A stretch of DNA of 63,196 nucleotides, counting the filler, from Candidatus Tectimicrobiota bacterium (GTDB lineage: Bacteria > JACPSX01), in NCBI GenBank assembly GCA_016193065.1. It is 5 parts of 5 records of this genome, joined end to end, with 100 filler letters (N's around TTAATTAATTAA, not from the genome) between each part and the next. Parts side by side here need not be neighbours in the genome. Positions count along the whole stretch, not along the records: positions 14,289 to 39,368 come from JACPSX010000027.1; 4 more parts are not named here. One strand, written 5' to 3'. The notes beneath the pieces are model-generated. The model was not told where the DNA came from. It ran no database searches and saw only the letters and a program-made list of their open reading frames with translations. A program made the translations under genes and the position numbers. Below, piece after piece: positions 20,491 to 21,379 of the stretch. Position 1 is the stretch's first letter. Every line of letters starts with the position of its first letter.

Positions 20491-20660
20491 CTCTGCGTCC
20501 TGGAAAAGGTTGTCGCTGCCAGGAAAATAGCATGACCTCCGGAACCCTGCAAGGGTTCAAAAGGAGAGGGATACTGAAAGGGAAGCGGCTCCCATGTCGA
20601 AGGCGCGCAGAACCCTGCATTGCTGGTGGTCACGCACTGTAGAAGAGAGATAACCGGCAG

Positions 20661-20691: not shown

Positions 20692-20875
20692 GGCAGAGTT
20701 CCCGTTAGGCCCGTGTATGTCGGACAAGGTGCCAGAGATTCCACAGGAACCTGTACGCAGGGCGCTCGGAAGTCAACTGGAAGAGCCCCCGAAAGGTCCT
20801 TACCACCGAGAAGCGCCGAGCGCGGAACGACTTCGATTTCTGCAGAACCTGACCCAGCACGATGGAATTGCTGCC
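20692..20875 (-). ncRNA. Candidate 184-nt rod-shaped structured RNA (6S-like size and shape)
   Basis: 5' GGCAG pairs with 3' CTGCC; nested helices incl. 15/16-bp AGGTTCTGCAGAAATC/GGTTCCTGTGGAATCT and GCGCTCGG/CCGAGCGC; apical UUCG loop; own -10 and terminator. Confidence 0.65.
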
Positions 20876-20881
20876 GGTTAA

Positions 20882-20890
20882 ATCATAGCA
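20882..20890 (-). promoter_or_regulatory. Extended -10 promoter (TGcTATGAT) for the rod RNA
   Basis: Predicted +1 falls on G20875, the first base of the closing stem. Confidence 0.65.
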
Positions 20891-21057
20891 CCGCATTTTC
20901 CATAACCTCCCATATACAAAAGGAGATTTCCAAAATCTATCTTCAAATTAATGCGTTTCCAGAGAATGTCAATAGGCTGGCATTTCGAGCTTGTTGAATT
21001 GATTCTCGGCCATGAGGGTGGTGCTTGCGAGGATTCGAAACCTTCAAATCAGCCTTG

Positions 21058-21151
21058 AAAAGGAGGGGGAGAGGCAGCCACCACGCTTTGTGGCTGCCTC
21101 TCTGTGGAGGTGATGATGGAAGGATGTGTAGGGACTTGCATCCGCTCGGTT
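21058..21151 (-). ncRNA. Candidate sigma54-dependent sRNA with anti-SD seed
   Basis: 5' hairpin GGATG/CATCC, single-stranded CATCATCACCTCC, 13-bp hairpin at 21069-21102, no ORF on this strand within it. Confidence 0.6.
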
Positions 21152-21160
21152 CTTTAAGAT

Positions 21161-21177
21161 ATGCAATCGGTATGCCA
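21161..21177 (-). promoter_or_regulatory. Sigma54 promoter
   Basis: Minus strand TGGCATACCGATTGCAT, near-consensus -24/-12. Confidence 0.8.
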
Positions 21178-21273
21178 AGAAAACCGAATGGAAGGGATGC
21201 TCGTAACTATTTGAGAATTCAGGAGGAAGAAAGGCGACAACAAGCCCCAATCCAGGGAACGACTGTGACAAGG

Positions 21274-21312
21274 TGTCAGAATTACCGACAGGGGGTGTCG
21301 AAAATGTCCGCA
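21274..21312. promoter_or_regulatory. Tandem TGTCR-N7-CSRCA sites, putative activator sites for the 21161 sigma54 promoter
   Basis: TGTCAGAATTACCGACA and TGTCGAAAATGTCCGCA, 22 bp apart. Confidence 0.5.
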
Positions 21313-21350
21313 AAGATTAGGCCCGCCAGCTTACTTCCTTGAAAAAGCTA

Positions 21351-21379
21351 TTGCAGATCGAAGGAAAATCTAGTAAAGT
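21351..21379 (+). promoter_or_regulatory. Sigma70 promoter of pheA operon
   Basis: TTGCAG-17nt-TAAAGT. Confidence 0.55.

Follow-up and report, generated by a model that had tools for sequence, protein, structure and literature searches.

The locus occupies a 930-bp gap between pheA (plus strand, from 21419), whose product carries CM_2, PDT and ACT domains, and glpX (minus strand, from 20490), which matches FBPase_glpX with an E of 1.3e-111. The likely start of glpX is the ATG at 20508 (MDRNLA...), which is kept in the sister genome, the mechanical ORF list giving 20490. Coordinates count along the window, i.e., the whole 63-kb stretch of DNA that was analysed, and the host is an uncultured groundwater bacterium with a 2.9-Mb assembly (294 contigs, 86% complete). 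On the minus strand the gap contains an enhancer-like (UAS) array, an IHF-like site, a sigma54 promoter, a conserved block interpreted here as a predicted small RNA, and a gene for a basic 63-aa protein (Table 1). The reference genome set holds 2 genomes for the whole phylum, i.e., this one and a sister species of the same genus, and these are the independent sequences that were compared (n = 2). The locus is syntenic in the sister genome, with gene order and strand alike and ~70% overall identity in a pairwise alignment spanning 3.2 kb. A preliminary description of this DNA had suggested searching relatives for a homologue of the RNA upstream of pheA, and the sister genome does carry a syntenic, conserved copy there.

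Table 1 Features of the pheA-glpX gap and their identity between the two genomes (positions along the window)
Feature	Position	Strand	Identity to sister species	Remarks
pheA			80%	
Enhancer block	21313-21268		39/46	
Enhancer-like (UAS) array	21266..21309	minus		two palindromes and a half-site
TGTCC half-site	21305-21309			
CGACA-N5-TGTCG palindrome	21286-21300			centre -142
TGACA-N3-TGTCA palindrome	21266-21278			centre -121
Spacer, enhancer block to promoter			61%	
IHF-like site TCAA-N4-TTA	21204..21214	minus		centre ~-58, between enhancer and promoter
Sigma54 promoter CTTGGCATACCGATTGCAT	21161..21179	minus	19/19	GG at 21176-21175, GC at 21164-21163
Stretch from promoter to +1, 9 nt			3/9	
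Predicted small RNA, ~94 nt	21058..21151	minus		5' end from promoter; 3' end where conservation stops
RNA block	21151-21059		83/93 (89%)	
5' hairpin, GCAA loop (nt 6-22)	21130..21146	minus		RNAalifold consensus
Unpaired linker, G-free, C/U/A-rich	21103..21129	minus		UCCC-adjacent, CCUUCC and AUCACCUCC (21114-21106) motifs
GC-rich hairpin, 13 bp (sister 11 bp)	21069..21102	minus		fold and RNAalifold consensus
3' tail CCCCUCCUUUU	21058..21068	minus		with the last stem C reads CCCCCUCCUU
84 nt downstream of RNA			40%	
Sigma70-like element TTGACA-16-TAATTT	20945..20972	minus		hexamers conserved, spacer varies (alignment reading)
Basic 63-aa protein gene, in tandem downstream	20705..20896	minus	64% (ORF, DNA level)	with GGAGG RBS
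Canonical terminator	20690-20672	minus		after the 63-aa ORF; first canonical one downstream of the RNA on the same strand
glpX			78%	

The near-consensus sigma54 promoter reported earlier is in fact an exact one: TGGCATACCGATTGCA at 21177-21162 (minus strand) is the sole exact TGGCAY-N5-TTGCW match in the window, and the promoter is identical in the sister genome at all 19 positions. Shuffled versions of the window held a mean of 0.08 exact matches, with at least one match in 8 of 100 shuffles, and with 1 mismatch allowed the motif showed no enrichment in the window (4 observed vs 2.71 expected). Exact matches number 20 genome-wide, and six genomes simulated with a Markov-1 model gave 1, 2, 4, 5, 1 and 5 (~3 expected); the majority of exact matches in the host should therefore be real promoters. 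The looser TGGYAY form has 30 matches in the genome, and for 28 of these an ORF of 60 aa or longer begins within 260 nt (a crude criterion); the remaining two are the promoter studied here and one on contig C282. The latter (G000:C282:1039, plus strand) is a second strict sigma54 match that lacks a nearby ORF by this criterion, and the sequence downstream of it is bounded at both ends by an inverted repeat; this region may represent a further non-coding target or, alternatively, one end of a mobile element. Five sigma54 matches (C141:4255, C254:12855, C254:5463, C210:10326, and C276:5817) have in common upstream TTGCCA-N4-TGTCA-like repeats, which suggests that one enhancer-binding protein may serve a multi-promoter regulon.

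The sigma54 machinery of the host is mostly present. A profile search of its genome with Sigma54_activat (PF00158) listed 20 matches, of which 16 are strong (E <= 8.4e-35), and among the PF00158 matches there was no enhancer-binding-protein gene adjacent to the locus. The sigma factor gene itself, rpoN (PF04552, PF04963), was not found in the 86%-complete assembly of the host; the sister genome does carry it (PF04963, E 3.4e-62).

Paired TGTC..GACA-type sites upstream of the promoter had been described as lying 22 bp apart; the sites are present and conserved, but the centres of the two palindromes are 21 bp apart, i.e., two helical turns. A 25-nt run identical to the sister genome spans the array (21309-21285), and nowhere else in the 2.9-Mb genome are at least five GACA/TGTC tetramers found within 48 nt. 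We infer that an enhancer-binding protein would bind here. The other GACA-N5-TGTC sites (10 in the genome) were set aside as a clue to the regulator: they lie inside predicted ORFs or are part of a pilin-type enhancer, and a strong sigma54 match is near none of them. Between array and promoter, the sequence TCAA-N4-TTA, read as IHF-like against what we take to be the IHF consensus (WATCAANNNNTTR), sits in a conserved island (AATTCTCAA.T.GTTAC) of a spacer that is otherwise 61% identical, and IHF may bind at this site. Taken as a whole, the layout fits a UAS placed ~80-150 bp upstream, often with an IHF site between, the palindromes being centred at -121 and -142 and the putative IHF site at ~-58. 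On its other side the array adjoins a conserved sigma70-like element, TTGCAG-17-TAAAGT (21351-21379, plus strand), located ~40 nt 5' of the TTG start of pheA, and an enhancer-bound protein could also affect pheA expression.

Given that the -12 C lies at 21163, transcription from the sigma54 promoter is predicted to start at ~21151. Conservation collapses immediately after the promoter (3 of 9 positions) and resumes at this predicted +1, where a 27-nt identical run begins, the longest in the 3.2-kb alignment. The RNA block as a whole is sharply bounded and, with 83 of 93 positions identical, reaches the level of the best-conserved windows within the pheA and glpX coding sequences. As the borders of the conserved block coincide with those of the predicted transcript, selection appears to act on a non-coding element.

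The predicted RNA has a minimum free energy of -34.4 kcal/mol (z = -3.61), a stability reached by 1 of 200 shuffles. The sequence agrees with the arrangement first drawn for it, i.e., an RNA from 21151 with an unpaired UUCCAUCAUCACCUCC just 5' of a 13-bp GC hairpin (21102-21069) and then CCCCUCCUUUU, with the exception of its 5' hairpin (GGAUG/CAUCC), which in the sister species is disrupted by a change of U to A. The 5' hairpin of the consensus fold is instead the one with the GCAA loop; all 6 of its pairs are invariant, and covariation therefore speaks neither for nor against it. The 13-bp hairpin shows one compensatory pair (C-G to U-A, columns 60/73), its other predicted pairs being invariant, and this single compensatory change between two sequences is thin evidence for the predicted stem. 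The linker is unpaired in both the single-sequence and the consensus folds, and the sister species has a 1-nt deletion within it. The tail is predicted to be unpaired with a probability of 0.70 in the host and 0.85 in the sister species. Conservation persists through CCCCCUCCUU and stops there, the conserved C-rich parts of the RNA being the invariant 5' region (with UCCCU), CCUUCC, and the 3' CCCCCUCCUU.

The stretch had been described as having no ORF start, and indeed neither strand holds a conserved ORF, owing to single-base indels and lost start codons: neither the plus-strand mini-ORF behind GGAGGTGATGATGG, nor a 105-aa plus-strand ORF, nor a 30-codon minus-strand ORF inside the RNA is kept in the sister species. 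The first two of these would matter most if the locus were read on the plus strand, with GGAGGTGAT as the RBS of the mini-ORF (ATG near 21113-21118), a possibility that the preliminary description had itself named as fatal to its proposal, or with the 105-aa ORF (21025-21342) as a gene or a pheA leader. In the host genome an ATGATG does follow GGAGG and the frame from 21025 to 21342 is open; however, GGAGGTGATGATGG, which comprises both RBS and ATG, corresponds to GGCGGTGATTGGG in the sister species, where the ATG is missing, the long frame is broken by two single-base indels with no equivalent ORF listed in the sister genome, and Pfam returned nothing for either long ORF. Judged by the comparison of the two genomes, the plus-strand reading is already contradicted, and we regard it as extremely improbable.

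The whole Rfam library gave no match overlapping 21058-21312 at E values up to 10. A covariance model built from the RNA found one full-length match per genome in both genomes of the phylum, without paralogues, and over 151 genomes it matched only the host, the sister species, and one other genome (G035, E 0.0029); this last match was rejected as a homologue, as it lacks a sigma54 promoter and resembles a gene-end hairpin. In an 18-mer scan of metagenome contigs, 15 of 16 loci were chance matches without promoter or hairpin, and the remaining one (L024) proved to come from the sister species already compared, its 14 mismatches over 3779 nt all lying outside the RNA. Of 10 sequencing runs listed none was an RNA run, and the contigs of four DNA runs, matched at 80% identity, left 21017-21251 uncovered. 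Comparative support for a conserved, sigma54-driven non-coding RNA can thus be called good for a two-genome lineage, and we consider that a sigma54-dependent non-coding transcript quite probably starts near 21151.

Where such a transcript would end is a different matter. An intrinsic terminator consists of a GC-rich stem with a U-tract immediately behind it, and of these two parts the RNA has the stem and not the U-tract: after the 13-bp stem, UUUU starts 8 nt on, and the sister species has just UU (CCUUUUC in the host vs CCUUCAAC in the sister). A terminator scan did not find the 13-bp hairpin terminator-like, and the same scan called the canonical terminator at 20690-20672. Because an adjacent U-tract is missing in an organism that does use canonical terminators, a discrete 3' end of the RNA is doubtful.

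The anti-Shine-Dalgarno sequence on which the earlier proposal had centred differs between the two genomes. We take AUCACCUCC to be the conserved 3' tail of 16S rRNA, an identity that rests on general knowledge since the organism's own 16S 3' end is unassembled (it is missing from both assemblies, and no complete 16S was found in that of the host). At 21114-21106, however, AUCACCUCC is replaced by AUCACCGCC in the sister species, i.e., CCUCC becomes CCGCC, and the 16S-tail mimic is thus not the conserved seed; the C-rich motifs that are conserved are the 3' CCCCCUCCUU and the UCCC and CCUUCC motifs.

Potential targets were sought as well. AAGGAGGGGGA, the exact complement of the conserved tail, precedes several start codons, and GGGA follows GGAGG at 38 of 2414 RBS-like sites vs 125 of 14496 sites elsewhere, only ~2x background. 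Start regions (n = 3849) were taken from crude gene calls, i.e., longest ORFs taken greedily. A duplex-energy scan of these 3849 regions gave a top-10 mean of -43.5, vs -39.2 to -44.0 in 10 shuffles, and a scan for 12-nt seeds at start regions gave 47 hits, vs 60-114 in 8 shuffles. Both scans thus stay within or below the range of their shuffled controls and do not allow a target to be named. Hfq was not found in the host or the sister genome.

A second RNA had also been suggested in tandem downstream. The tandem neighbour is, on comparative grounds, a real gene for a strongly basic protein, equipped with a separate promoter-like element and a terminator, and it may be what was first read as the tandem RNA: the 63-aa protein is 56% identical to its sister-genome counterpart, with many synonymous codon changes, and 87% identical to a metagenome homologue. 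These two (the sister copy and the one metagenome protein) are the only known homologues of this lineage-specific protein, for which no family match was found in Pfam, NCBIfam, or Atlas, and its AlphaFold model (pLDDT 54.7) is too poor for a fold search. The TTGACA-16-TAATTT element in front of the gene was missed by a consensus scan, its -10 hexamer scoring only 3/6. That the ORF has a conserved promoter-like element of its own argues that the RNA and the ORF are separate units.

Based on these features, we propose that the minus strand from 21151 to ~21058 would be a stand-alone non-coding RNA gene of ~94 nt. An enhancer-binding protein would occupy the palindromes at -121 and -142, the DNA would bend at the IHF-like site, and sigma54-RNA polymerase would thereby be activated at TGGCAT-N5-TTGCAT upon a signal. 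Of the possible modes of action, we consider it most likely that the unpaired C-rich segments of the RNA would base-pair with G-rich ribosome-binding regions of mRNAs and lower their translation. We give about even chances to the RNA being a discrete, trans-acting small RNA, and the explanation as a whole, i.e., an enhancer-activated, sigma54-dependent ~94-nt small RNA that acts in trans, seems to us to stand at a similar balance; that the RNA would work by masking ribosome-binding sites is possible, though doubtful. A bolder version, in which the RNA would be a signal-induced decoy of the 16S 3' tail, with unpaired CCUCC-type stretches rivalling ribosomes for strong GGAGG(GGGA) sites on many mRNAs as a global, Hfq-independent brake on translation under the switch of one enhancer-binding protein, and perhaps with the basic 63-aa protein as RNA partner, appears improbable.

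The doubtful 3' end gives most room to another reading of the conserved block, namely as the 5' leader of a ~480-nt sigma54 mRNA that would read through the hairpin, the second outcome named as fatal in the preliminary description, and on through the 63-aa gene to 20690-20672, and would act in cis or have a dual function, the ORF then being served by both a sigma54 and a sigma70-like promoter. The hairpin lacks an adjacent U-tract and was passed over by the terminator scan, the first canonical terminator on the same strand lies past the 63-aa ORF, and gene order and strand are alike in both genomes, all of which would suit a leader. In the host, moreover, nt 41-46 of the long transcript (ACCUCC) are predicted to pair with the GGAGGU of the ORF, whose Shine-Dalgarno sequence has an unpaired probability of only 0.04. 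This pairing, however, is absent in the sister species (CCGCC), where the corresponding probability is 0.85, which makes a conserved cis-acting anti-Shine-Dalgarno leader unlikely, though read-through as such may still occur. A continuous leader also sits poorly with the 84 nt 3' of the RNA being just 40% identical, with the conserved TTGACA-16-TAATTT between RNA and ORF, and with an RNA block that is far better conserved (89%) than the ORF itself (64% at the DNA level). We thus regard a leader as rather unlikely, while giving it more weight than the readings that follow.

The null results of the target searches could alternatively mean that a sigma54-driven RNA is made and binds a protein rather than mRNA, e.g., by titrating a regulator that binds C-rich RNA, possibly the basic 63-aa protein. 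Neither genome yielded Hfq, neither of the two scans showed target enrichment, and the RNA gene adjoins the gene of this lineage-specific basic protein in both genomes; a precedent is described for CrcZ, which binds Hfq/Crc (PMC8871633). Yet arrays of repeated protein-binding motifs, as found in protein-titrating sponge RNAs, are not seen in the RNA, two closely related genomes make adjacency a weak argument, the model of the 63-aa protein (pLDDT 54.7) is uninformative, and a direct link between RNA and protein was not seen, so we hold protein binding to be quite unlikely. A similarly low probability is assigned to there being no stable functional RNA at all, the conserved block consisting of DNA-level sites (promoter-proximal operators) or the promoter being a silent or roadblock sigma54 binding site. 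Only two genomes were compared and the conservation could have other causes; against this, the 93-bp conserved block begins at +1 and not at the promoter, the hairpin is kept by a double change, and enhancer, IHF-like site, and promoter make up a complete architecture. Among these possibilities we therefore retain the small RNA transcribed from its own sigma54 promoter as the working interpretation.

If expressed, the RNA would become the first regulatory RNA to be described for the candidate phylum, which is represented by two genomes in the reference set, and it would offer a clear example, beyond the Proteobacteria-type models, of a non-coding RNA with an enhancer, an IHF site, and a sigma54 promoter all to itself. 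The unique enhancer and the 27-nt invariant 5' end offer a handle for linking one of the 16 enhancer-binding proteins to its signal. The candidate belongs to no curated Rfam family, and sigma54-dependent non-coding RNAs as such are already known; since both sigma54-driven small RNAs and C-rich seeds are established, it opens no long-standing question.

Close parallels in design include Qrr1-5 (activated by LuxO with sigma54) and GlmY (GlrR with sigma54), RNAs of ~100 nt with a strongly conserved single-stranded seed and a 3' hairpin. The candidate has a like size, a sigma54 promoter, and the same combination of a single-stranded segment and a 3' hairpin; unlike it, Qrr and GlmY end in a U-tract terminator and Qrr uses Hfq. 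As no family matched in Rfam, which should include those of Qrr and GlmY, the resemblance is one of design and not of membership. Four sigma54-dependent non-coding RNAs are reported in the reconstructed sigma54 regulome of Desulfovibrio vulgaris (PMC4641369). These RNAs too are preceded by a -24/-12 promoter, with a site for an enhancer-binding protein further upstream, and were likewise predicted by comparative genomics in an anaerobe; they come from another phylum, and the likeness is one of design by description and implies no sequence relation. In Pseudomonas, crcZ and crcY are transcribed from sigmaN promoters activated by CbrB (PMC8871633). The shared element would be a regulatory RNA transcribed as a separate unit from an enhancer-activated sigma54 promoter, whereas CrcZ is longer, sequesters Hfq/Crc, and is encoded beside cbrB; the candidate has no regulator gene next to it, searches for Hfq in both genomes found nothing, and Rfam gave no match.

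With respect to its presumed mode of action, the candidate can be set beside RsaE/RoxS and the CCUCCUCCC 'cuckoo' RNAs, small RNAs with C-rich or anti-Shine-Dalgarno seeds. Anti-Shine-Dalgarno regions are stated to be common in small RNAs that regulate translation initiation, AbcR1 being named as one (PMC6234868). In common with such C-rich-seed RNAs (AbcR1, RsaE/RoxS, and the cuckoo RNAs), the candidate is predicted to leave unpaired some C-rich sequence that is complementary to ribosome-binding sites of the GGAGG type. Motifs of this sort usually occupy hairpin loops in the known RNAs and form their best-conserved segment, whereas in the candidate the sister species has lost one CCUCC and the C-rich motif that is conserved is the 3' tail.
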